From positions 7,929 to 71,928 of the IMG/VR virus record IMGVR_UViG_3300038321_000157: 64,000 nucleotides of DNA; one strand, given 5' to 3'. A model generated the notes under the pieces. The model was not told where the DNA came from and searched no databases. It saw nothing but the letters and a program-made list of their open reading frames with translations. A program made the position numbers and the translations under genes. Below, one piece after another: positions 3,245 through 55,877 of this stretch (the stretch's first letter is position 1; each line of letters starts with the position of its first letter). The DNA comes from a virus.

Positions 3245-3544
3245 ATGATTGATGAGTTAGAAATTAAAAGTTTTGATGCTAGGTTTGGAACCAGATCAAA
3301 AGTGTTTCAATGCACTAATACGATTGTTATAGAAACACCTTTAGACAGTTGGATTGTAAAAGTTACGAACAGACAAACCAGACCACTATGTTTATTGCAT
3401 AAGAACAAATTTGGAAGAATAAATAAATACCACATTCAATCTTGGAAGACAAAAATGTTTCATGTCTATGATTCTATTTACAAACATAAAGGGATGCATC
3501 TTGTAGGTGCACCCAATACATATAAAGGTAGTCAAATAAAATGA
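3245..3544 (+). CDS. Hypothetical protein translationally coupled to agrB
   Basis: GGAGG RBS; ATGA overlap with agrB. Confidence 0.7.
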   Translation: MIDELEIKSFDARFGTRSKVFQCTNTIVIETPLDSWIVKVTNRQTRPLCLLHKNKFGRINKYHIQSWKTKMFHVYDSIYKHKGMHLVGAPNTYKGSQIK

Positions 3545-4134
3545 AAAAATATTTTCGGTACTTATACACCTTAAAATACATTAAATTACTCGCATATATG
3601 TCAGCAAGATCATTACAATTATCACGTAACGAGTCTCATAAACACAAATATATGTATTATTATGGATTTAATATTTTATATGGAGCAATTAATAAAGGAA
3701 CACTCCTTATACTGGCAGGATTATTATTCCATGCGTTACCCCAAATCCTTGTTACTACACTTGCGTTTATGTCACTTAGGGGTTTTATAGGGGGATTACA
3801 TTTTGATTCATATACAAAATGTGCCTGGATTTCATTGTTATGTTTGGTTTCAATAGGGTTATTAGCAAAATATATTCCTTACAATAATATTATAAATTTA
3901 TGTGTGTTTATTTATCTGTTAGTTATTGCTTTCATTTATGCACCAGTTGAACATAAAAATAGACCACTAACAGATAAGAAAAAAATAACTTTTAAATATG
4001 TATCCATTGTAATAATTTTTGCACTATATAGTGCTCAGGCCATAGTTAATAACGATAATATTAGTAATTGCATCATGTACGGTGTTTTATTATCGGGCAT
4101 TATCGCATTGCCAATATTTAAGAAAGTCAAATAA
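3541..4134 (+). CDS. agrB: Accessory gene regulator B-type membrane peptidase/cyclase
   Basis: YGFNIL, LRGFIGGLH..S..KC (catalytic His and Cys), IYAPVEHKNRPL; multi-TM. Confidence 0.9.
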   Translation: MKKYFRYLYTLKYIKLLAYMSARSLQLSRNESHKHKYMYYYGFNILYGAINKGTLLILAGLLFHALPQILVTTLAFMSLRGFIGGLHFDSYTKCAWISLLCLVSIGLLAKYIPYNNIINLCVFIYLLVIAFIYAPVEHKNRPLTDKKKITFKYVSIVIIFALYSAQAIVNNDNISNCIMYGVLLSGIIALPIFKKVK

Positions 4135-12888: not shown

Positions 12889-12947
12889 ATCATTATAAAA
12901 TCCAGCTTTTATAATGTTATAAAAATAAATATAGGAGGAAGTAAAAA

Positions 12948-34328: not shown

Positions 34329-37300
34329 TTGGAGCAAAAATATTTTAATCTACATAATCATACAAATTACTCAAATCTAAGGCTTGTAGACTGTATTACT
34401 AAAGTCGATAAATTAATAGATAGAGCAATTGAATTAGATTATAGTGGTTTAGCAATAACTGAACATGAATGTATATCATCACATATAGAAGCAATTAAAC
34501 ATATTAAAATATTACGTGAAGAAAATAAAATTGACGATAATTGGAAGTTGATTCTTGGTAATGAAATTTATCTAGTTGATGATAAATATTGTTTAAAAGA
34601 GAATTATATTTCAGGAGAAACAAAGTTTTATCATTTTATTTTATTAGCAAAAGATAAAGAAGGCCATAAACAAATTAGAGAATTATCATCAATTGCTTGG
34701 GATAATCTTTATTCTACTGGACAGATGGAAAGAGTACCTACTGGCAAAAGTGACTTAGAAAGAGTTATCAAAGGGAATCATGTAATTGGGAGTACTGCCT
34801 GTTTAGGAGGTGAGTTCTCTCAATTAATATTGAAATTAATAGAATTAGAGCAGAGTAATAATATAAAGCTAGTAGAAGAAATTAAATGGCGAATAGATAA
34901 TTTTATTCAGTGGTGCATCTCAGTATTTGGTAAAGAGTGTTTTTTTATCGAAATCCAACCTTCAAATATGATTGGACAAATTGAATTTAATAAAAAAGCT
35001 ATAGAAATTGCTAAAGCATATGGTTTAAAGTGGATTGTAACAACAGATACACATTATCTTAATAAAGAGGATAGAATGATTCATAAAGCCTATTTAAATT
35101 CTAAAGATGGAGATAGAGAAGTAGATGATTTTTATTCTTCTACATATTTACAATCCATCGAAGAAATTAAAGATTACTTATCATATTTAAATAAAGAAGA
35201 CATTGAACAAGCAATAAATAATACTTTATTAATTGGGAATATGGTAGAAAATTATGATTTAAAAAGTAATGTTATAGTTCCTAGAATTACTTTACCTAAG
35301 TTTGAAGTAGAACATATTTTTAAGCAAGTATATGAAAAATATCCTTATTTAGAAAAGTTTGCTTACAGTAATGATGATCAGGATAGATATTTATTTAAAC
35401 TTATAGAAGAAGGTTTTAAAAATAAAATATGGACAGATACACTTACTAAAGAATATTTTTATCAAGTTCTTGAAAGAATTAATACTGAATTAAAGGAATT
35501 ATGGGAAATTACAAATGTAATAAACACTAAATTATCCTCTTATTATATTACTACTAGGCAAATCATTAATATAATGTGGAATGAAGGAGATAGTTTAGTC
35601 GGAGTAGCAAGAGGAAGTGTAACTGGTTTTCTAATATGCTATCTCATAGATATTACTCAAATTAATCCTTTGCAATGGGGGTTGCCTCATTGGAGACATC
35701 TTACTGCATCAAGACCAGAGTTACCAGATATTGATTTGGATTCCGCAGCTAATAGAAGAAAACAGATACTTAAAGCATTACAAAATTATTTCGGAGAAGA
35801 TAGAGTACTTAATATATGTACTTTTGGTACAGAAGGTAGTAGAAGTGCAGTTTTAACAGCATGTAGAGGACTTTTCATTGATAATGATACTGCTCAATAT
35901 ATTGCTGATATGATACCTTTTGAAAGAGGTTCTAATTGGCCTATTAAAGATTGTATTAATGGGAATGAAGAAAAAAGTAGAAAACCCGTAAAAGAATTTA
36001 TTAATGAAATTAAATCTTATGAGAATTTACTTGATGTGGCATTAGGTATTGAAGGTTTGATTAATAAACGCTCAATTCATGCTTCAGGTGTATTCATTTA
36101 TAATGATAATTTTGTTAATTTTAATGCACGAATGAAAGCACCAAATGGTCAATTTATAAGTCAATGGAATATGAATGATAGTGAATATTGTGGGAATTTA
36201 AAAGTTGATCTTCTTACTATTGAAGCATTAGATAAAATAAGAGCAACTTTAGATATGTTAGTTGAAGATGGATATATGGAATGGCAAGGAAGTTTAAGAG
36301 AAACTTATAATAAATATATTCATCCAGACGTATTAGATTATGATACACCTGAAATGTGGAAAATGATTGCTGATAATACAATTGTAGATTTATTTCAATT
36401 TGATACTGAAGTAGGATTACAAGCAGCACAAAAAGTAAAACCAACTAACATGTTTGAAATGGCAGTTGTTAATTCATTAATGAGATTAATGGGAGATGGG
36501 AATAAACAACCAGTAGATCAGTATATAGAATATAAAAAGAATATTAATAAATGGTATGAAGAAATGAGAAGTTATAATTTAACTTCCGAAGAGATTAAAG
36601 TGTTAGAAAAATATTTAAAAAAAATATATGGAGTAGCAGATACACAAGAAGTTGTGATGGAATTGTCTATGGATGATAAAATTGCTGGATTCGATTTAAA
36701 GCAAAGTAACACACTCAGAAAAGGTATTGCTAAGAAAAAAGGTAAAATTATTGATGAAGCAAAAGCAGAATTTTTTAAACAAGGTGAAAAGATTGGTACA
36801 AGTAATAATTTATTAAAATATGTTTGGGATGTTCAAATTAAACGGCAGTTAGGATATTCTTTTTCGATTAATCATACGACCCCTTATTCCTGTATTGGTT
36901 TGCAAGAAATGAATTTAGCATTCCATTATCCTAAACTTTATTGGGAAACTGCTTGTTTATCAGTAAATGCAGGAGCAGATGAAGAATCAGAAGATAATAA
37001 ATCTACTAACTATGGTAAAATTGCAAGTTCAATAGGTAATATGCAACATAGAGATGTTAAAATAGCTTTACCTGATATAAATAAGGCTAGTTTTGGTTTT
37101 AAAGCAGATTTAAAAAATAATCAAATAATATTTGGATTAAAAGGTATTAATGGAATTGGTGATGATGTTGTTAAAAATATTATTTCTAATAGACCATATA
37201 TATCATTTGAAGATTTTTTAAATAGAATGGTTTTATGTGAAAATTCATTAATTAAAAATAGCCATATGATACAGTTAATAAAAGCAGGGTGCTTTGACGA

Positions 37301-38267
37301 ATTAGTCAACAAATCAAGAATAGATATTATGAAAGATTATCTTAACCAAATATATGAACCTAAAAAAGACTTAGGATTAAGAAATATTAACAATGTAATT
37401 GAAGCAAATTTAGTACCAGAAGATAAACAAATTTATTTCAGATATTATAATTTTAAAAATTACATTACCAGTAAAGAGTTTATTCATGAATTAATACCTT
37501 CTAAAAGACCGACTAAAAAAGGGTATAGTGATAGATTAATCAAACTTGATGATATAGCATATCCATTCTATCAAGAACATTTTTCAGAAGATAATATTAC
37601 TGAATACTATGATAATACTATAATAATATCCGAAAATAAGTTTATGAAAGAATATAATAAAAAGATGGAAGATTTTAAAATATGGATAAGTAATGAAGAA
37701 TTATTAAAAAAGTATAATGATTACTTATATCAAGAAATTTGGAATAAACATGCCAAAGGCAGTATCCCAAAATGGGAAATGGACGCACTTTGTTTTTATT
37801 ACACAGAACATGAATTGTGTAATGTTAATATGAATAAATTTAACATTGTTAATTTCTTTGAAATGCCTATAAAACCAAAAGTAGTTGATACATATACTAG
37901 AAAAGGAATTAAAAGAAATAAATTTGAAATAGTTAGAATTGCTGGAACTGTGTTAGATAAAAATAAACATAAACATTCAATATCACTATTAACTGTAGAT
38001 GGGGTAGTAAATGTAAAATATTATGACGGTGCATTTTATCATTATGACCGTCAAATATCACAGAAAAATAAAGATGGTAGTAAAACTGTGTTAGAAAAGT
38101 CATGGTTTTCAAGGGGTTCGCTCTTAATCATAGCAGGTTACAGGAGAGGTAATACATTTCGCCCGTATAGATATAAAGATACTATTTATCAACATACAAC
38201 CACAAAGATTGTCGGTATAAGTGATAATGGAGATTTAATATTAGAATCAGAAAGGACACAAGAATAA
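34329..38267 (+). CDS. dnaE: DNA polymerase III alpha subunit
   Basis: PHP domain (LHNHTNYS, ITEH, TDTHY); RGS; PDIDLD; HASG; YSFSINH. Confidence 0.95.
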   Translation: MEQKYFNLHNHTNYSNLRLVDCITKVDKLIDRAIELDYSGLAITEHECISSHIEAIKHIKILREENKIDDNWKLILGNEIYLVDDKYCLKENYISGETKFYHFILLAKDKEGHKQIRELSSIAWDNLYSTGQMERVPTGKSDLERVIKGNHVIGSTACLGGEFSQLILKLIELEQSNNIKLVEEIKWRIDNFIQWCISVFGKECFFIEIQPSNMIGQIEFNKKAIEIAKAYGLKWIVTTDTHYLNKEDRMIHKAYLNSKDGDREVDDFYSSTYLQSIEEIKDYLSYLNKEDIEQAINNTLLIGNMVENYDLKSNVIVPRITLPKFEVEHIFKQVYEKYPYLEKFAYSNDDQDRYLFKLIEEGFKNKIWTDTLTKEYFYQVLERINTELKELWEITNVINTKLSSYYITTRQIINIMWNEGDSLVGVARGSVTGFLICYLIDITQINPLQWGLPHWRHLTASRPELPDIDLDSAANRRKQILKALQNYFGEDRVLNICTFGTEGSRSAVLTACRGLFIDNDTAQYIADMIPFERGSNWPIKDCINGNEEKSRKPVKEFINEIKSYENLLDVALGIEGLINKRSIHASGVFIYNDNFVNFNARMKAPNGQFISQWNMNDSEYCGNLKVDLLTIEALDKIRATLDMLVEDGYMEWQGSLRETYNKYIHPDVLDYDTPEMWKMIADNTIVDLFQFDTEVGLQAAQKVKPTNMFEMAVVNSLMRLMGDGNKQPVDQYIEYKKNINKWYEEMRSYNLTSEEIKVLEKYLKKIYGVADTQEVVMELSMDDKIAGFDLKQSNTLRKGIAKKKGKIIDEAKAEFFKQGEKIGTSNNLLKYVWDVQIKRQLGYSFSINHTTPYSCIGLQEMNLAFHYPKLYWETACLSVNAGADEESEDNKSTNYGKIASSIGNMQHRDVKIALPDINKASFGFKADLKNNQIIFGLKGINGIGDDVVKNIISNRPYISFEDFLNRMVLCENSLIKNSHMIQLIKAGCFDELVNKSRIDIMKDYLNQIYEPKKDLGLRNINNVIEANLVPEDKQIYFRYYNFKNYITSKEFIHELIPSKRPTKKGYSDRLIKLDDIAYPFYQEHFSEDNITEYYDNTIIISENKFMKEYNKKMEDFKIWISNEELLKKYNDYLYQEIWNKHAKGSIPKWEMDALCFYYTEHELCNVNMNKFNIVNFFEMPIKPKVVDTYTRKGIKRNKFEIVRIAGTVLDKNKHKHSISLLTVDGVVNVKYYDGAFYHYDRQISQKNKDGSKTVLEKSWFSRGSLLIIAGYRRGNTFRPYRYKDTIYQHTTTKIVGISDNGDLILESERTQE

Positions 38268-39206
38268 ATGTCTAGATTTAAGAATTTAACAGGAGAAATT
38301 TATGGGAATTTTAAAGTTTTATATTTAGACAAAGAAAGGAGTAGTAAAACCAATAGAACCTATTGGATGTGTGAATGTCAATGTAGGTATAAAACTTTAG
38401 TAAGTAAAAGACAAGATGTGTTAAAGAAAAATAAAAATAATAAATGTCCAAAATGTGATTGTTGTTATTGTGATTTATCTGGTGAATATGGAATTGGTTA
38501 TACTTCACAAGAAATAGTATTTTATTTTGATTTAGAAGACTATGATGTAGTTTGTGATTATAATTGGATAAAAAGTGAAGGAAATTATATATATAGAAAT
38601 GTTAATTCTCAACAAGTATATTTACATAGAAGTATTATGAGTAAATATGAAAATATAGAAAGTAAAACAATAGACCACATTAATCATAATACTTTAGATA
38701 ATAGGAAAGAAAATTTAAGAGTTTGTGAACTTTATGAAAATCTTAGAAATAATAAAGTTAGTAGAGCAAGTTCAGGATATAAAGGAGTATATTATAATGA
38801 AAGAGATGATAATTGGCGTGTTAGAATATCATTAATTGATAATAAAATAAACATAGGAACATTTGATAATCTTGAAGATGCAGTTATTGCAAGGATTCAA
38901 GCAGAAAAAGAGTATTATAATGATTTTAGATATAAAGACAGAGATGAAGAAATTGAATCAAATTTAAATATAAACATTGATGAAATTAGCAATATAAAAA
39001 TAAATAAAAATTCCAAACAGTCTAAACCTGTAATACAATATAGCTTGAATAATGAATATATTAAATCATTTAATAATTTATTAGAAGCAGAAAAACTTAC
39101 AAATTGTAATTATCAACATATAAGAGAGTGCTGTGAGAATATAAGAAAAACCCATAAAGGTTATAAATGGAGTTATGGCACAGAAAGGATACAAGTTAAT
39201 GAGTGA
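38268..39206 (+). CDS. HNH-AP2 homing endonuclease with C-terminal NUMOD1-like domain
   Basis: LHRSI..IDHINHNTLDNRKENLR; SGYKGVY; KPVIQY..CC...RKTHKGYKW. Confidence 0.85.
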   Translation: MSRFKNLTGEIYGNFKVLYLDKERSSKTNRTYWMCECQCRYKTLVSKRQDVLKKNKNNKCPKCDCCYCDLSGEYGIGYTSQEIVFYFDLEDYDVVCDYNWIKSEGNYIYRNVNSQQVYLHRSIMSKYENIESKTIDHINHNTLDNRKENLRVCELYENLRNNKVSRASSGYKGVYYNERDDNWRVRISLIDNKINIGTFDNLEDAVIARIQAEKEYYNDFRYKDRDEEIESNLNINIDEISNIKINKNSKQSKPVIQYSLNNEYIKSFNNLLEAEKLTNCNYQHIRECCENIRKTHKGYKWSYGTERIQVNE

Positions 39207-41496
39207 AGAGAATCAAATTAAATGTACAGCGAAAATAAATCAAATTAGATATTATAAAGATAATTGGGGTATTCTTTCTGTTTCCTTAATTGATTCTATA
39301 TATGGAGTAATAAATACAGATAAATATAATTCTTTTATAGTTAAAGGGAATATGGGTGAACCTAATTATCAGGATACTTTTACAATAGTTGCTAATGAGA
39401 CTGATGATCCAAAATGGGGGAAACAATATGAATTAATTTATATGGGAGTATCTGCTGATATATCTACTGAAGATAAACAAAAAATATTTTTATCTAAAAT
39501 ACTTACTCAAAGGCAAATAGAAAATTTATATAATACTATAGAAAATCCTATCGAAGTATTAGAAAATGAAGATATTAAACAATTAACTAAAGTAAAGGGG
39601 ATAGGGGTAACAACTGCTGTCGCATTAATTGAAAGATATAAAGAGCATATAGATTATTCCATTGCTTATGTAGAATTAGATAAATATGGTTTAACTCCTA
39701 ATGCGATAAGAAAAATAGTTGATATGTATCAATCACCAGAGTTGGCAATACAAAAAATAAAAGAAAACCCTTATATATTAGCAGATGAAGTAGAAGGAAT
39801 AGGATGGAAGAAAGCAGATAGTATTGCTTTAAGTGTAGGTATTCATCCTCATGCACCCGAAAGAATAAAAGCATTTATTACATATTTTTTAGAATGTAAT
39901 GCAAATGATGGAGATTCATTTATTTCACCTTCTTTATTAATGGATGGGATAGTTGCAAACATTGGAGATGAATTAGATGATGAACATTTAAGAAATGTTT
40001 TATACGATATGCAAGATGTTCTTTGGTGGGATGAAGATAAAACAAAAATTGGGTTAAAAAGGTATTATGATTTAGAATTTAAAATTACTGAAGAGTTAAT
40101 AAGAATATTAAATGGTCAAAATAATTTTGAATATAAAAATTGGGAAAATGATATTAAAGAAGTTGAAAAAAAGCAAGGATGGGAATATACTTCTCAACAA
40201 ATTGAAGGTATAAAAACTGTTTTAGAAAATCAAGTTGTTATGATTACAGGTCTTGCCGGGACGGGGAAATCGAGTGTTGTTGCCGGAATGTTAAAAGTCC
40301 TTGAAAATTATTCATTTGCTCAATGTGCTTTAAGTGGTAGAGCAGCAGCAAGAATGACAGAAATTACAAATGTAACAGGATATACGATACATAGATTATT
40401 AGGATTTATACCAAGGCAAGGATTTGAATTTAATAAAAACAATCCTTTAAATGAAGATATTATTATTGTTGATGAAGTATCAATGATTGGTGGTTATTTA
40501 TTCTATAGTTTAATTCAAGCTATTAAAAATGGAGCAAAATTAATTATGCTTGCAGATATTGGGCAACTTGAAAGTATTGGAGTATTAAATGTAGCAAGTG
40601 ATATAATAAATTCTAATAAAATTCCAGTAGTAAGGTTAGATAAAATCCATAGACAGGCTCAAAAGTCTGCTATTATTACGGAAAGTATAAAAGTAAGAAA
40701 TGGAGTCCAATTATGTGATAATTCATTCAATGATAAAGAAATTAGAGGAGAACTTCAAGATTTAGAATTAGACATTTACTTAAATAAAGATAAAACAGCA
40801 CAAAAAGTTATAGAAAAGTTTAAAGAAAACCTACCTAAAGTAAATAATATTATGGACATTCAGGTGATTTTACCTATGAAAACTAATGGTAAATCATCAA
40901 CATTTAATATTAACCAAGAATTACAAAACATATATAATCCATATAATCCTTCTATTAAGGAAATCGAAATTAGGCATTCAAAGAATTTAAGTTATAAATT
41001 ACGTATTAATGATAAAGTTATGAATACAAGAAATAATTATAAAACTATAAAATATAATCCTTATTCAGAAGATGAAGAAGAATTATATAATAATGATTCT
41101 GATCTCCAAGTATTTACTCCTATTTTTAATGGTAATTTGGGTGTTATAAAAGAAATCCATTCAAGTTATATGATTATTGACTTTTATACTATTGGTGAAA
41201 TTATTGTACCTCAAAAACATTGGAAATATATCGAACTTGGATACGCAGCAACTTGTCATAAGTTTCAAGGCTCACAAAGTCCTATAGTTATTATTGGTTT
41301 GGATTTTAATGCTTATATGTTGTTGACTAAAGAATGGATTTATACTGCTTTAACCAGAGCACAAGAATATTGTGTACTCTGTGCAGAGAATAAAGCATTA
41401 AGATATGCAATATCTCATAATGGAGTATCTAATAAGAAAACACATTTAAAAGATATGTTAGAAAACTATGGTGCAATTAAAATGAAGGATTATTAA
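39199..41496 (+). CDS. recD2: RecD2-like SF1B helicase
   Basis: HhH region; GLAGTGKS; TIHRLL; VDEVSM; QLESI; HRQA; YAATCHKFQGSQ; YTALTRA. Confidence 0.9.
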   Translation: MSEENQIKCTAKINQIRYYKDNWGILSVSLIDSIYGVINTDKYNSFIVKGNMGEPNYQDTFTIVANETDDPKWGKQYELIYMGVSADISTEDKQKIFLSKILTQRQIENLYNTIENPIEVLENEDIKQLTKVKGIGVTTAVALIERYKEHIDYSIAYVELDKYGLTPNAIRKIVDMYQSPELAIQKIKENPYILADEVEGIGWKKADSIALSVGIHPHAPERIKAFITYFLECNANDGDSFISPSLLMDGIVANIGDELDDEHLRNVLYDMQDVLWWDEDKTKIGLKRYYDLEFKITEELIRILNGQNNFEYKNWENDIKEVEKKQGWEYTSQQIEGIKTVLENQVVMITGLAGTGKSSVVAGMLKVLENYSFAQCALSGRAAARMTEITNVTGYTIHRLLGFIPRQGFEFNKNNPLNEDIIIVDEVSMIGGYLFYSLIQAIKNGAKLIMLADIGQLESIGVLNVASDIINSNKIPVVRLDKIHRQAQKSAIITESIKVRNGVQLCDNSFNDKEIRGELQDLELDIYLNKDKTAQKVIEKFKENLPKVNNIMDIQVILPMKTNGKSSTFNINQELQNIYNPYNPSIKEIEIRHSKNLSYKLRINDKVMNTRNNYKTIKYNPYSEDEEELYNNDSDLQVFTPIFNGNLGVIKEIHSSYMIIDFYTIGEIIVPQKHWKYIELGYAATCHKFQGSQSPIVIIGLDFNAYMLLTKEWIYTALTRAQEYCVLCAENKALRYAISHNGVSNKKTHLKDMLENYGAIKMKDY

Positions 41497-41514
41497 AATA
41501 ATAATATAAATATA

Positions 41515-41543
41515 TTGACAAATACCACAACTGAATATATACT
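41515..41543 (+). promoter_or_regulatory. Sigma-A-type promoter upstream of the candidate ncRNA
   Basis: TTGACA-17 nt-TATACT. Confidence 0.75.
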
Positions 41544-41549
41544 ATTACT

Positions 41550-41640
41550 AGAGAGCGAAGGGATTGAATAAATCAGTTCCATGCCCAATAAAAACGGAAT
41601 CCCTAACCGTGGGATAAACATGGGAGTTTGCTCTCTTTTA
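41550..41640 (+). ncRNA. Candidate structured small RNA with a pseudoknot, family unassigned
   Basis: Closing stem 41551-59/41627-35; inner stems 41577-83/41619-25, 41584-86/41611-13, 41594-97/41607-10; loop AAUCCC pairs with GGGAUU 41560-65; U-run follows. Confidence 0.65.
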
Positions 41641-41690
41641 TAATTAATAAAAGGCAGGTTTTATCCAAACTGTAGAAAGGAATTATTTTT

Positions 41691-41873
41691 ATGAGAGATA
41701 TAAATAGAATCGAACCACTATTAAATGATCTTAAAGAGTTATGGTTAAAATATCCAGATTTAAGATTATGTCAATTACTTGCTTGGATCGCAAATGATAG
41801 TGGTTGGACTAATAATGATTTATTTTATTTAGAAGATGATGTAATTGCAGAGCAAATTAAAAAGATATTATAA
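41691..41873 (+). CDS. Hypothetical protein
   Basis: MRDINRIEPLL..W..YPDLRLCQL; AAGGA RBS. Confidence 0.7.
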   Translation: MRDINRIEPLLNDLKELWLKYPDLRLCQLLAWIANDSGWTNNDLFYLEDDVIAEQIKKIL

Positions 41874-42916: not shown

Positions 42917-43036
42917 AATAAAATTTTTACTTTATATAGAGTGAAATAAACCTAATTATTAATTTGTTTATTTACAACATAATATGTTAATACTTATAAT
43001 AAAATTAAACTAAACAAATTGAAATGAGGTATTAGC

Positions 43037-46906: not shown

Positions 46907-48811
46907 ATGTATATAAAAGTTAGTTACGATCAAGAGTTCGATGATTTAATGATGTATCTACGGTCAAAATATCCGTCAAAAATATTTGATTTAGATGGAA
47001 TTGGTGAGCAAACGGATATGAGTAAATTCAGTAAGAAGTTTTTCTCAGTATCAACTACGGCAGATGCTAGTATTGATGCAAATGCTAATGTTGACGATAT
47101 AAGTGTTATTGCCTATAGTACTGAATTACCAAAACCTTTCCTTCGGTTAAATAGTTATTATATGGTTTGGAAAGAATTAAGAAGATTATTTAATTTAGAG
47201 ATTGCTAATGAAACTGTAGAAAGAAACCTCATTGGTGATATTTATATAAATGATTTTCATGGTATTGGTGCAGGACTCCCATACTGCTATAATTATTCTA
47301 CATACGATATTATGACTAAAGGTTTACCGATGGTCAAAAAAATTAAATCTTTTCCACCAAAATATCTTTATTCCTTTAAATCACAACTTGAACAATTTAC
47401 TATTATTGCAGCAAACTCAACTTTAGGAGCAACTGGATTAGCTGATTTATTAATTGTAATGAGTTATTATGTTAAGAATATTCTTAGTACATTGTCAGAT
47501 GCTAAATTTAAGTTTTCAACTAAAGAAGATGCATGGAAGTATATAAAGGAAAATTTAATTAGTTTTATTTACACTATTAATCAACCAATGAGAGGAAACC
47601 AAAGTTGTTTTACTAATATATCCATTTATGATGATATATTTTTAGAAGCAATGAAAGATGATTATATTTTCCCAGATGGTAGTGGATTAGATATAAATAT
47701 AATCAAACAATTACAAGATATGTTCTTAACTATTATGAATACTGAAATGCAAAGAACTCCTATTACATTCCCAATTACTACTGCTTGTTTTTCTATAGAT
47801 GAAAACAATAATATAAAAGACAGGGAATTCATTAAATTTATAGCAAAACATAATCAGAAGTATGGATTTATTAATATTTATTGTGGTGATAGTTCTACGT
47901 TAAGTTCATGTTGTCGGTTAAGATCAGACAAAAATAATGAATATTTTAATAGTTTTGGTTCAGGTTCAAGTAAAATTGGTAGTCTTGGGGTAGTTACAAT
48001 CAATCTCCCTAGATTGGCAATAAAGCATAAAAATAATAAAAAAACATTTTATATGGAATTAGCGCATTTAGTCCAGTTGTGTTCTAAAATAAATCATGCC
48101 AAAAGAAAATTAATTCAAAAGAGGATTGATAATGGCAATCATCCTTTATATACATTAGGTTTTATTAATATCAATACTCAATATAGTACCGTTGGTATTA
48201 ATGGATTTAATGAGTGTATAGAAATTTTAGGAGAAAATATTTTAGAGCAAAATGGAATTGACTTAGGATTAAGTATTATTGAAACTATAAATATTGAAAA
48301 CGATAAATGTGCAAAACAGTATAAAACACCACATAATTGTGAGCAAATTCCAGCAGAAAATGTATCAATTAAACTTGCCAATAAAGATAAAGTTTTAAAA
48401 TATCAAGATACATATAATATTTATAGTAATCAATTTATACCACTTACTACTAAAGCAAATGTATTAGATAGAATTAAATTACAAGGTGTTTTTGATAAGC
48501 ACTTTAGTGGAGGGGCAATTGCCCATATAAATATTGATACTCCTATAGAAGATTTAACTCAAATTGAAAACTTAATTGAGACTTGTGCAAAAATGGGAGT
48601 AGTTTATTTTGCAATAAATTATGTTATTGCTGAATGTGAAAAAGGTCATATATGTGTTACAACTAGTGATAAATGTACAATTTGTGGTGGCAATATTATT
48701 AATAAGTTTACTAGAGTAGTTGGGTTTTTAACATCAATTAAAAATTGGCATGAAGTAAGAAGGGAAAAGGATTTCCCTAATAGACAATGGTATAAGGGGT
48801 CAGATATATAA
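46907..48811 (+). CDS. nrdD: Anaerobic (class III) ribonucleotide reductase, no ATP-cone
   Basis: PYC; SSCCRLR; LGVVTINLPR; PAE; SGG; CxxC; RVVGFL glycyl-radical loop. Confidence 0.95.
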   Translation: MYIKVSYDQEFDDLMMYLRSKYPSKIFDLDGIGEQTDMSKFSKKFFSVSTTADASIDANANVDDISVIAYSTELPKPFLRLNSYYMVWKELRRLFNLEIANETVERNLIGDIYINDFHGIGAGLPYCYNYSTYDIMTKGLPMVKKIKSFPPKYLYSFKSQLEQFTIIAANSTLGATGLADLLIVMSYYVKNILSTLSDAKFKFSTKEDAWKYIKENLISFIYTINQPMRGNQSCFTNISIYDDIFLEAMKDDYIFPDGSGLDINIIKQLQDMFLTIMNTEMQRTPITFPITTACFSIDENNNIKDREFIKFIAKHNQKYGFINIYCGDSSTLSSCCRLRSDKNNEYFNSFGSGSSKIGSLGVVTINLPRLAIKHKNNKKTFYMELAHLVQLCSKINHAKRKLIQKRIDNGNHPLYTLGFININTQYSTVGINGFNECIEILGENILEQNGIDLGLSIIETINIENDKCAKQYKTPHNCEQIPAENVSIKLANKDKVLKYQDTYNIYSNQFIPLTTKANVLDRIKLQGVFDKHFSGGAIAHINIDTPIEDLTQIENLIETCAKMGVVYFAINYVIAECEKGHICVTTSDKCTICGGNIINKFTRVVGFLTSIKNWHEVRREKDFPNRQWYKGSDI

Positions 48812-48813
48812 TA

Positions 48814-49269
48814 ATGAATATACTATATATTGATTTTACTTTAAAAAATAAATCATTAGATATTTATGTAGCAGGATGTAATGGTAATCCACACTGTAAG
48901 GATTGCCATAATCCTGAATCTTGGGATTTTGATCAAGGAGCAGAATATAATAATAAATATATATCTTATATTAAACGTAGAATAGAAGAATTTGATTTAT
49001 TAATTGACAATATTATGATTATGGGAGGAGAACCATTAGACCAGGATTATGATGAGTTAATTAAATTATTATCAGATTTAAAGAAATTTAATAAAAATAT
49101 TTGGTTGTTCACTAGATATGAAATTGAAGAAATACCAGATGAAATAATTGGATATTGTAACTATATTAAAACAGGTAAATATATTCCTGAATTAGAGGTA
49201 AATGATAATATTCAAAATGGAATTAAATTAGCAACAAGTAATCAAAAGATATATAAAATAGAAATATAA
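48814..49269 (+). CDS. nrdG: Class III RNR activating enzyme (radical SAM)
   Basis: GCNGNPHCKDCHN; GGEPL. Confidence 0.92.
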   Translation: MNILYIDFTLKNKSLDIYVAGCNGNPHCKDCHNPESWDFDQGAEYNNKYISYIKRRIEEFDLLIDNIMIMGGEPLDQDYDELIKLLSDLKKFNKNIWLFTRYEIEEIPDEIIGYCNYIKTGKYIPELEVNDNIQNGIKLATSNQKIYKIEI

Positions 49270-50290: not shown

Positions 50291-50318
50291 AGCAGGGGTT
50301 AATTCTCCTGCTTTATTT
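50291..50318 (+). terminator. Intrinsic terminator after dut
   Basis: AGCAGGGG / CTCCTGCT followed by TTATTT. Confidence 0.6.
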
Positions 50319-54221: not shown

Positions 54222-54535
54222 AGGTAGACATTAGGTAGACATACTCCTTATTTTATTGTAAAATACCATATAATTTTATATAAGAAAGTAAAAGATTATA
54301 AGGGAAATAAAAGTTTAATTAATACTGATATATTAGGGATTACAAAAGATTATATAAGAAAGTAATTGAGTATAAAAGAAACACAAGGCAACAGTTCGAC
54401 TCCCCCCGCCTCCACCAATGAAAATACCGAAACACAGGACTTCGTTAAAATAAATCAACTTCTAGGTAGACAAATAGGTAGACATTTAGAAAATTAACTG
54501 ATAAAATATTGCCATAAAATCTTTCTAGGTAGACA
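54222..54535. repeat. Five direct AGGTAGACA repeats flanking the attP core (integrase arm-type sites)
   Basis: Copies at 54222, 54233, 54464, 54476, 54527. Confidence 0.85.
54394..54417 (+). other. attP core: 3' end of tmRNA (ssrA)-type RNA, GTTCGACTCCCCCCGCCTCCACCA
   Basis: T-loop TTCGA, 3' T-stem, acceptor strand CGCCTCC (implies G3.U70) and ACCA; no 5' half upstream; lies between xis and int. Confidence 0.85.
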
Positions 54536-54566
54536 TTTTAAAATTACTAATGAAAGAAGGATTAAA

Positions 54567-55715
54567 TTGGCAAGAAAAAAAGTCGAAAAGAATATTGCAT
54601 ATGATGATGAGAAAAATTTATATTATGTAAATCTTGATTATGGTAAAAATGACTCAGGTAAAAGGATTAAATCAACAAAAACATTCACAAAAATTCAAGA
54701 CGCAAGACAAGCATTAAAAGAATTTGAAGCTAATAAAACTAAAAACACTATTGTTTTCCCATCTTCTATTAAATTTAAAGATTATGCTACTTATTGGTTA
54801 AATGATATTAAATCATTAAAATGTGAAGAAACTACACTCTATGGGTATAGAAATATAATTAATAATCATCTTATCCCATCATTAGGTAATCACAAACTTC
54901 AAGATTTAAAACCAACAACTATTAATAAATATTTTAAAAGAAAATATGAAGATGGATTAAGTAAAAATACAGTAAGAAAGCATTATGATTTATTAAAAGA
55001 TATATTAAAAAATGCTGTGAATGAAGATATATTAGTAAAAAATCCTTTAAATAAAATAGAACCTATTAAACCTAATAAAAAAGAAGCGAAATATTATACT
55101 AAAGAAAATTTAGCAAAATTATTTGATATTATTAAAAATGATCGTATGGAAATAGTTGTTAAATTGGCAGGTTTATTAGGATTAAGAAGAGAAGAAATTG
55201 CAGGACTCAAATGGAAGAATATAGATTTAACTAATGATGAAATTACTATAGCAGAAGTGAGAATACAAGCAGGTAAAACAGTTAAAACTTTTCAACGCAC
55301 TAAAACAGAATCTTCTTATAGAACACTTCATATACCGGAAGATATTAAAAACATACTTTTAAAAATTAAATCTGAGCAAGAAGAAAGAAAAAAGATTCTA
55401 AAAGATTCTTATTATAAAGAAGGTTATGTTATCGCATGGGAAGATGGAAGTCCATATAGACCAAATTATTTAGGTGATTTATTTACAAAAATAATCAGAG
55501 ATAATAATTTACCATCTATAGGATTACATGGATTAAGACATACGTTTGCGAGTATAGCAAATGATATGGGTGTTAATTTATATGATATTAGTAAAGCATT
55601 AGGGCATAGTCAAGTTGGGACTACTAGTGAAATCTATACACATTTATTTGATAAAGCACATAAAAAAGCTGTTAATAAAGTTGCTGATGTTTTTAAAACA
55701 GAAGAAAACAAATAA
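54567..55715 (+). CDS. int: Phage tyrosine integrase
   Basis: SAM-like domain; GLRREE; HGLRHTFA; LGHS....T..IYTH. Confidence 0.95.
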   Translation: MARKKVEKNIAYDDEKNLYYVNLDYGKNDSGKRIKSTKTFTKIQDARQALKEFEANKTKNTIVFPSSIKFKDYATYWLNDIKSLKCEETTLYGYRNIINNHLIPSLGNHKLQDLKPTTINKYFKRKYEDGLSKNTVRKHYDLLKDILKNAVNEDILVKNPLNKIEPIKPNKKEAKYYTKENLAKLFDIIKNDRMEIVVKLAGLLGLRREEIAGLKWKNIDLTNDEITIAEVRIQAGKTVKTFQRTKTESSYRTLHIPEDIKNILLKIKSEQEERKKILKDSYYKEGYVIAWEDGSPYRPNYLGDLFTKIIRDNNLPSIGLHGLRHTFASIANDMGVNLYDISKALGHSQVGTTSEIYTHLFDKAHKKAVNKVADVFKTEENK

Positions 55716-55749: not shown

Positions 55750-55877
55750 GCCAAAAGCCAAAAATTGACAAATGTTAAAATTCACTTTTACAAACTCCGT
55801 TTTTCTTTGATTTACTTCCATTTACTCCGTTTTTCAAAGCAAAAATCATGATAAAATACTTGTTTTATGTTGACTTC

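Follow-up and report, generated by a model that had tools for sequence, protein, structure and literature searches.

A pseudoknotted leader RNA behind a consensus promoter at the head of a phage small-gene array

The 5′ stabilisers of Escherichia coli ompA and papA, of Bacillus subtilis ermC and aprE and of phage SP82 are located at the extreme 5′ end of the mRNA, and any gene can follow them. They are simple hairpins or ribosome-binding purine tracts; in SP82, the 5′ strand of the stabiliser is purine-rich. The mRNA of T4 gene 32 starts with a 5′ pseudoknot followed by an unstructured A/U-rich leader that extends up to the ribosome-binding site, and the protein that binds this operator is the product of the gene so regulated. 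HK022 put and the Bacillus EAR element are self-contained structured RNAs heading the nascent transcript of a long operon; put consists of two stem-loops. Pseudoknotted riboswitch aptamers (preQ1-II/III, SAM-II/V, fluoride and ZTP) combine small size with an H-type pseudoknot, conserved junction nucleotides and an A-rich strand next to a G–C-rich pseudoknot helix. The c4 RNAs of P1/P7 and the CI RNA of P4 (Rfam C4) are small structured RNAs that come from a phage operon leader. To our knowledge, hardly any structured RNAs have been charted in phages of Gram-positive anaerobes.

The leader RNA described here is located in a 64,000-nt stretch of DNA (hereafter, the window) covering bases 7929–71928 of the 139,278-bp IMG/VR virus record IMGVR_UViG_3300038321_000157. 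It is an 87-nt pseudoknotted domain (41550..41636, plus strand; all coordinates are those of the window unless a contig is named). Purines predominate in its 5′ strand, a trait shared with the SP82 stabiliser. As with the known stabilisers, its predicted place is the extreme 5′ end of an mRNA, with differing genes behind it. Judged from the predicted start, it likewise leaves no unpaired 5′ nucleotides for RppH and RNase J1; RppH of B. subtilis requires at least two (PMC3997798). It differs from the stabilisers, which are simple hairpins or purine tracts, in having a pseudoknotted domain with invariant junctions. In layout, it follows T4 gene 32, with the pseudoknot first and an A/U-rich leader up to the ribosome-binding site behind it; there is, however, no sequence similarity to the T4 operator, and the first gene varies between members of the family. 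The position at the head of a long operon is shared with put and EAR, but the fold is different, there is no Rfam match, downstream terminators are few and the genome holds a single copy. The size, the H-type pseudoknot, the conserved junction nucleotides and the A-rich strand beside a G–C-rich pseudoknot helix are shared with the riboswitch aptamers; unlike these, the leader RNA has no Rfam match, no conserved expression platform and no coherent downstream gene, and it starts at the predicted +1. The c4/CI RNAs are likewise small structured leader RNAs, but no match to Rfam C4 was found, and complementarity of the loop to a downstream site occurs in only two of seven leaders. By analogy, the leader RNA appears functionally nearest to the 5′ mRNA stabilisers and, in layout, to the T4 gene 32 pseudoknot, being a member of neither group; it apparently represents an uncatalogued family among structured phage leader RNAs.

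The replication module of the phage precedes the leader RNA. DNA polymerase III alpha (34329–38267) is separated by an HNH/NUMOD endonuclease (38268–39206) from a RecD2-like helicase (39175..41496, plus strand), which is the final gene of the module and the one directly upstream of the leader RNA. The endonuclease frame, which is NUMOD1 homing-endonuclease-like, overlaps the helicase start. Between the helicase and the gene array that follows is a gap of 194 nt containing a promoter and the leader RNA. The promoter is of the sigma-A/sigma-70 type, TTGACA-17-TATACT (41515..41543, plus strand). It had been pointed out in a preliminary description made from the sequence alone, and it is indeed present as the top-scoring site of the region, matching at 11 of 12 positions; its −10 hexamer ends at 41543, and a conserved A/T-rich block is located upstream of it. 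A second candidate, the internal promoter TAAACA-18-TATAAT at 41615–41644, was rejected, as it is not conserved among family members. A Shine–Dalgarno sequence, GAAAGGA, and the first array gene, encoding a 60-aa DUF1040-like protein, occupy 41675..41873 (plus strand). The co-directional array (41691..~54165, plus strand), apparently served by the leader promoter, comprises about 35 mostly small genes, including those of the anaerobic ribonucleotide reductase NrdD (46907–48811, plus strand) and its activase NrdG (48814–49269, plus strand). The array is about 12–14 kb in length, and a simple pattern-match scan of 14 kb found one terminator-like site inside it, at 50291–50312. No other strong promoter for the array was found between the leader promoter and position 42971.

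Beyond the array, ORF 54567–55715 encodes a tyrosine integrase (Pfam Phage_integrase). Upstream of this ORF, a stretch at 54385–54418 ending in ...GTTCGACTCCCCCCGCCTCCACCA resembles the 3′ end of a tRNA or tmRNA (T-arm, acceptor and CCA); an Rfam search of this fragment gave no match. Repeated AGGTAGACA motifs flank it at 54224–54245, 54464–54487 and 54526–54537. The fragment and the repeats in front of the integrase gene are probably an attP core with arm-type sites.

In the window copy, the leader RNA begins 6 nt past the −10 box, with its first base at the predicted +1. It is closed by helix P1, whose 5′ strand (41550..41559) pairs with 41627–41636; P1 is composed of seven Watson–Crick pairs, a G·U pair and two A–U pairs. 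The 3′ strand of P1, UUUGCUCUCU, together with the short U-run at 41637–41639, occupies 41627..41639. Directly after the P1 5′ strand comes the 5′ strand of the pseudoknot, GGGAUU (41560..41565), which pairs with AAUCCC (41598–41603) in the P4 loop. Helix P3 (41577–41583 with 41619–41625) has 7 bp in the window copy, five of which are conserved, and is continued by the invariant P3b, CCC (41584–41586) with GGG (41611–41613); the 5′ strands of the two (41577..41586) read UUCCAUG and CCC. An A-rich junction, AAUAAAA (41587..41593), lies between P3b and P4 and is near-invariant as RAUAAAA in all eight known sequences; it may have a tertiary role. The P4 hairpin (41594..41610) is formed by ACGG (41594–41597) and CCGU (41607–41610) and carries a 9-nt loop, AAUCCCUAA, whose positions 41598–41603 are the 3′ strand of the pseudoknot and in which GAAYCCC is conserved. 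All these elements are on the plus strand. The closing stem and the nested 7-, 3- and 4-bp stems of the preliminary description were thus all recovered from the sequence as P1, P3, P3b and P4, and its stretch of about 90 GC-richer nucleotides was confirmed: the leader RNA has about 42% G+C, with values of 0.38–0.42 for the region against 0.20–0.29 for its flanks and 0.27 for the genome.

The plus strand of this 87-nt stretch folds with a minimum free energy (MFE) of −29.3 kcal/mol (z = −3.5), and none of 200 shuffled sequences folds as well; for the minus strand, z = −1.7. The single-sequence MFE of the window copy favours, in place of the pseudoknot, a local hairpin (GGGAUUGA/UCAGUUCC) that uses the G-run. 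The sole ORF across the leader RNA is a mechanical 42-codon frame on the minus strand. A coding region was rejected: one ORF would begin upstream of the promoter, and the indels among homologues are not multiples of three, one- and two-base indels arguing against a coding reading.

The preliminary description had recognised no known riboswitch, ribozyme or tRNA here, and the database searches agree. Rfam 15 (4227 models) gave no match to any family at gathering thresholds over the whole window; in 41400–41800 at E ≤ 10, only chance-level minus-strand matches to mir-1284 and rli36 appeared (15.5–15.6 bits, E 5–6). ARAGORN found no tRNA or tmRNA in the window. Resemblances to twister, ykkC, THF and boxA had no model match behind them and were set aside.

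Homologues were found in metagenomic phage contigs, at least seven distinct ones beyond the window copy (W). The first, L041, lies on a Logan contig that was reached via a downstream protein. A degenerate pattern on the shared core gave at least five further members (L071, L072, L116, L148 and L176) among at least 120 metagenome matches, and L179 was found in a genome collection, on a 3.5-kb phage-like contig binned to a Bacilli MAG. The family, therefore of at least eight distinct sequences, falls into three clades: W and L072 (clade 1); L071, L148, L176 and L179 (clade 2); and L041 and L116 (clade 3). The metagenomes it comes from include activated sludge and fermentation. Near-identical copies occur in further assemblies (L036–L039); one of them, the 96%-identical L039, differs by 12 substitutions across the 140 nt leading up to the element, with the element and its leader unchanged. 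A covariance model, R1, scores family members at 83–113 bits and the window copy at 112.8 bits, its sole match in the window and in the genome.

Further searches for the family added no copies. R1 found none in the 36.9-kb relative G001, in 18 helicase-related IMG/VR loci, in 12 loci fetched via a 115-aa neighbour protein and close helicase relatives, in 150 genomes from the order of the MAG holding L179, or in 13 of 16 DUF1040 loci, a search outside which L024, L027–L032 and L034 lay. In IMG/VR, an exact 22-mer and four degenerate patterns gave either nothing, as three of the patterns did, or chance matches only, and blastn of two family members against GenBank phages gave only chance matches of 20–35 nt. 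Since these searches of relatives and databases by R1 and by pattern yielded no further copies, the family is judged to be rare; it is real and so far confined to phage-like contigs, and more members probably exist. A miniature inverted-repeat element (MITE) was rejected as an identity for the sequence, which is single copy and absent from 185,579 species genomes save the one phage-like 3.5-kb contig.

Comparison of the eight distinct sequences (alignment A2, the basis for all pair counts) bears on the fold. The proposed structure pairs 95.9% of cells on A2, compared with 33–56% for every slid control. P1, P3/P3b, P4 and the GGGRU/AYCCC pseudoknot are kept in all eight. Both partners have changed in five pairs, of which two belong to P1 (G–C to A–U and A–U to G–C), two to P3 (CCAUG/CAUGG versus CCACA/UGUGG) and one to P4, whose middle pair is seen as G–C, C–G and U–A. 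When no structure was supplied, RNAalifold recovered P1, P3 with P3b, and P4, leaving the 5′ G-run and the P4 loop unpaired. The covariation, drawn from eight sequences in three clades, is suggestive; it is consistent with the fold without being statistically decisive. The pairing of AAUCCC with GGGAUU, which the preliminary description had proposed, is backed by the comparative data even though the single-sequence MFE prefers the local hairpin. The duplex of G-run and P4 loop amounts to −8.3 to −10.2 kcal/mol in 8/8 sequences; the competing hairpin has about −4 kcal/mol in clade 2, and −2.4 and 0.0 in the two members of clade 3. The pseudoknot is preferred because the duplex is kept throughout while the hairpin is lost in clade 3. 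Where U has become C in the loop, the 5′ strand shows a matching A/G-to-G change, and a one-base register shift in clade 3 accounts for two unpaired pseudoknot cells there in the column-wise count.

An operator, origin or recombination site acting as DNA, or a chance fold, could be imagined for a sequence that adjoins the replication module and contains inverted repeats. This reading is extremely improbable: all members have strand-specific G·U pairs, three helices show compensatory changes, the pseudoknot is kept throughout, the distance to the promoter is fixed and no shuffled sequence folds as well. The G·U at column 8/85, present in 8/8 sequences, fixes the transcribed strand as plus. Between clades, identity is 0.80 in the element, 0.77 in the promoter region and 0.58 in the following 60 nt. 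The leader RNA is a real, selectively maintained, strand-specific pseudoknotted fold.

Its position relative to the promoter is constant. All eight members are preceded by TTGACA-17-TATA(C/A)T, and P1 starts exactly 6 nt past the −10 hexamer in each of them, the six bases in between varying from member to member. Owing to this constant spacing, the first base of the RNA is taken as the predicted +1, with the 5′ end paired flush. The genes upstream are always those of replication or DNA modification (helicase, a Pol III alpha fragment, ERCC4 nuclease and methylases). Downstream, a spacer of 55–120 nt, A/U-rich and unconserved, leads up to the first ribosome-binding site; the first genes are unrelated between members and the small-gene arrays are mosaic. 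No protein common to all member loci was found. L041 and L176, with helicases 91% identical, carry elements from different clades. From these sequence comparisons, the leader RNA is seen to travel with its consensus promoter as a cassette that is not bound to one gene.

Three members from two element clades share a conserved ATATTTGTGAATAGATGACTTGTTTTGT-like block after the element (L041:1296-1325, L116:2369-2398 and L148:2761-2790); the block may mark a recombination joint or be a second leader module. In the window copy, the spacer contains a perfect palindrome, ATAAAA-N6-TTTTAT (41647..41664, plus strand), which the preliminary description had listed along with the U-run at 41637–41639. Both are real, but the palindrome is private to this phage lineage: it is absent from the leaders of the other members and is thus placed outside the RNA family. 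In the window, it occurs at three sites (12895–12912, 41647–41664 and 55851–55868) against 0.33 expected by shuffling, and it may form a small hairpin or serve as a site for a protein.

The sequence behind P1 is less uniform than the fold. It is U-rich in five of the eight members, with 4–6 U in the next 8 nt; in L041, L116 and L148, it has 1–3 U and then A-runs. Terminator-like calls were obtained at the 3′ end of the element in W and L176. These tails bear on the primary reading of the preliminary description, a stand-alone small RNA. In such a reading, the fold of about 90 nt would be freed by partial termination at the U-run or by processing and would work in trans: it could be part of a phage RNP, for instance, or could serve as decoy or inhibitor against a host nuclease or RNA-binding defence. 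Read-through would merely drive the array. The RNA has its own consensus promoter, both its ends are flush in P1 with U's directly after, and the whole fold is strongly conserved; it is single copy, with a patchy, accessory-like distribution independent of neighbouring genes. However, the U-tract is weak or absent in 3/8 members, and a conserved efficient terminator is not among the features found. The downstream genes have no conserved promoter of their own, the loci show no conserved protein partner, the tandem repeats and toxin gene of type III antitoxins are missing, and a downstream site complementary to the loop, which c4/CI-type RNAs would need, is present in only 2/7 leaders. A trans-acting small RNA is accordingly considered unlikely, and the claim was not upheld as the primary reading, given that three of eight members have only UUU and then A-runs and that no comparable conserved promoter precedes the first gene. 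Two specific forms were rejected. For a type III antitoxin RNA (ToxI/CptI), there is no tandem repeat, and Pfam gave no toxin-family match downstream; for c4/CI-like self-targeting, a significant site for the P4 loop exists only in L072 and L179 (z −3.4 and −4.4) and not in the other five.

A separate intergenic hairpin, ...AAUCCC-loop-GGGAUUCUU, was observed in the arrays of related phages (L072 ~3270–3300, L179 ~2075–2100 and L211 ~1795–1815). The 3′ arm of this hairpin and the P4 loop of the leader RNA are complementary, and one of the phages with the hairpin lacks the leader RNA.

The other suggestion of the preliminary description, a cis-regulatory leader for the array, fits better than a small RNA in that the element does head a small-gene array, whereas the regulatory mechanism it implied did not emerge. 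One such mechanism would be that of a sensor or attenuator: the fold would bind either a small molecule or a protein of the phage or the host and set transcription or translation into the array. The terminator of an attenuator would then be formed by the U-run together with either P1 or the local hairpin GGGAG/CUCYY. A compact pseudoknot with many invariant unpaired nucleotides (RAUAAAA and GAAYCCC) is aptamer-like, and a conserved structured domain with covariation, the generic mark of a riboswitch aptamer, is found here. The U-rich tail of five members and the terminator-like calls in W and L176 would suit a terminator, and ribonucleotide reductases, of a different class in each case, are encoded in the arrays of two lineages. 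On the other side, the expression platform is not conserved, since 3/8 members have UUU and then A-runs, and the local terminator hairpin is missing in clade 3. Between the fold and the first ribosome-binding site lie 55–120 nt of unconserved spacer, the genes that come first show no relationship to one another, the reductases are 5–8 kb distant, and no Rfam riboswitch matches even at E = 10. A sensor of this kind is therefore doubtful, at about the same level as the free small RNA. The variable first genes, the unconserved spacer and the lack of a usable U-tract in three of eight members weaken both the terminated-RNA and the gene-specific riboswitch readings. The reductases themselves occur 5–8 kb downstream in two lineages only and differ in class; in the L176 array, the enzyme is of class II (B12-type, with an ATP-cone; L176:636-2042, minus strand).

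A role as a polymerase-acting RNA, like HK022 put or the Bacillus EAR element, would make RNA polymerase resistant to pausing and termination over the 12–14-kb array as the fold emerges in the nascent transcript. A place right at the beginning of so long an operon, behind a strong promoter, would suit this role, for which neither a particular set of genes nor a conserved protein is required. The 3′ strand UUGCUCYYUUUA is, in our estimation, loosely boxA-like, but this strand is base-paired and covarying. There would also be few terminators to overcome: simple pattern matching showed one terminator-like site over 14 kb of W and none across 10 kb of the L176 array. Each genome has one copy despite its other long operons, and no Rfam family matched, the EAR/epsC entry presumably being included. 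An antitermination role is very unlikely on these grounds.

Relatives without the leader RNA were also informative. The same promoter type follows the helicase in these phages as well. In L010, the nearest IMG/VR relative by helicase (73%), the same promoter is followed by an unstructured A/T-rich leader without the element, which implies that the leader structure is dispensable. In others, simple unrelated hairpins stand right after the equivalent promoter (L210:869-935, L214:332-400 and L222 ~3655–3700), their register to +1 being uncertain. A DUF1040-specific regulator was rejected, as DUF1040 homologues in other phages directly follow a promoter without this leader RNA. The L010 helicase (L010:3019-6282) is 1087 aa in length versus 773 aa in the window, suggesting an inserted intein or domain.

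The leader RNA is best read, from its sequence context, as the 5′-terminal domain of the mRNA for the 12–14-kb array of small genes and ribonucleotide reductase genes. The three of eight members without a U-tract, the lack of a conserved promoter before the first gene and the lack of another strong promoter for the array indicate that, at a minimum, this RNA makes up the 5′ end of the operon mRNA. We infer the transcription start, the read-through into the array and the stabilising effect discussed below. Host RNA polymerase would transcribe the leader RNA from the consensus promoter following the phage replication genes. P1 would start at the first transcribed base and enclose a coaxial P3–P3b–P4 stack, and the apical P4 loop would pair back to the G-run after P1, giving an H-type pseudoknot with an A-rich junction. 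Such a compact fold, with no unpaired 5′ nucleotides, may deny access to the 5′-end-dependent decay of Bacillota (RppH, then RNase J1), and the block may stabilise a long early or middle mRNA whichever genes follow.

Protection of the 5′ end of the long transcript is a possibility that we hold tentatively, at somewhat less than an even chance. It is ranked first because the flush 5′ helix is the sole base-precise feature, because Bacillota decay needs unpaired 5′ nucleotides and because relatives have simpler hairpins at this place. What chiefly argues against a purely passive role is how intricate the fold is, since a simple hairpin would be enough for protection. The invariant nucleotides of junction and loop, together with the pseudoknot, suggest a specific partner, whether a ligand, a protein or the polymerase. 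A dedicated device is quite unlikely, though a little less so than antitermination; it could be a ring-like pseudoknot that stalls the 5′-to-3′ exonuclease RNase J, as a phage exoribonuclease-resistant RNA, or a signal- or polymerase-binding gate of a 12–14-kb early operon.

If the reading as a dedicated device is true, the leader RNA would represent a functional RNA class that is new and confined to large Bacillota phages; should it have a ligand, a protein or the polymerase as its binding partner, a new class of regulatory RNA would be at hand. If it acts by stabilising or gating, it would offer a portable 5′ expression module for use in Clostridia and Bacilli, and it would show how large temperate phages secure operons of more than 10 kb where mRNA decay starts at the 5′ end.
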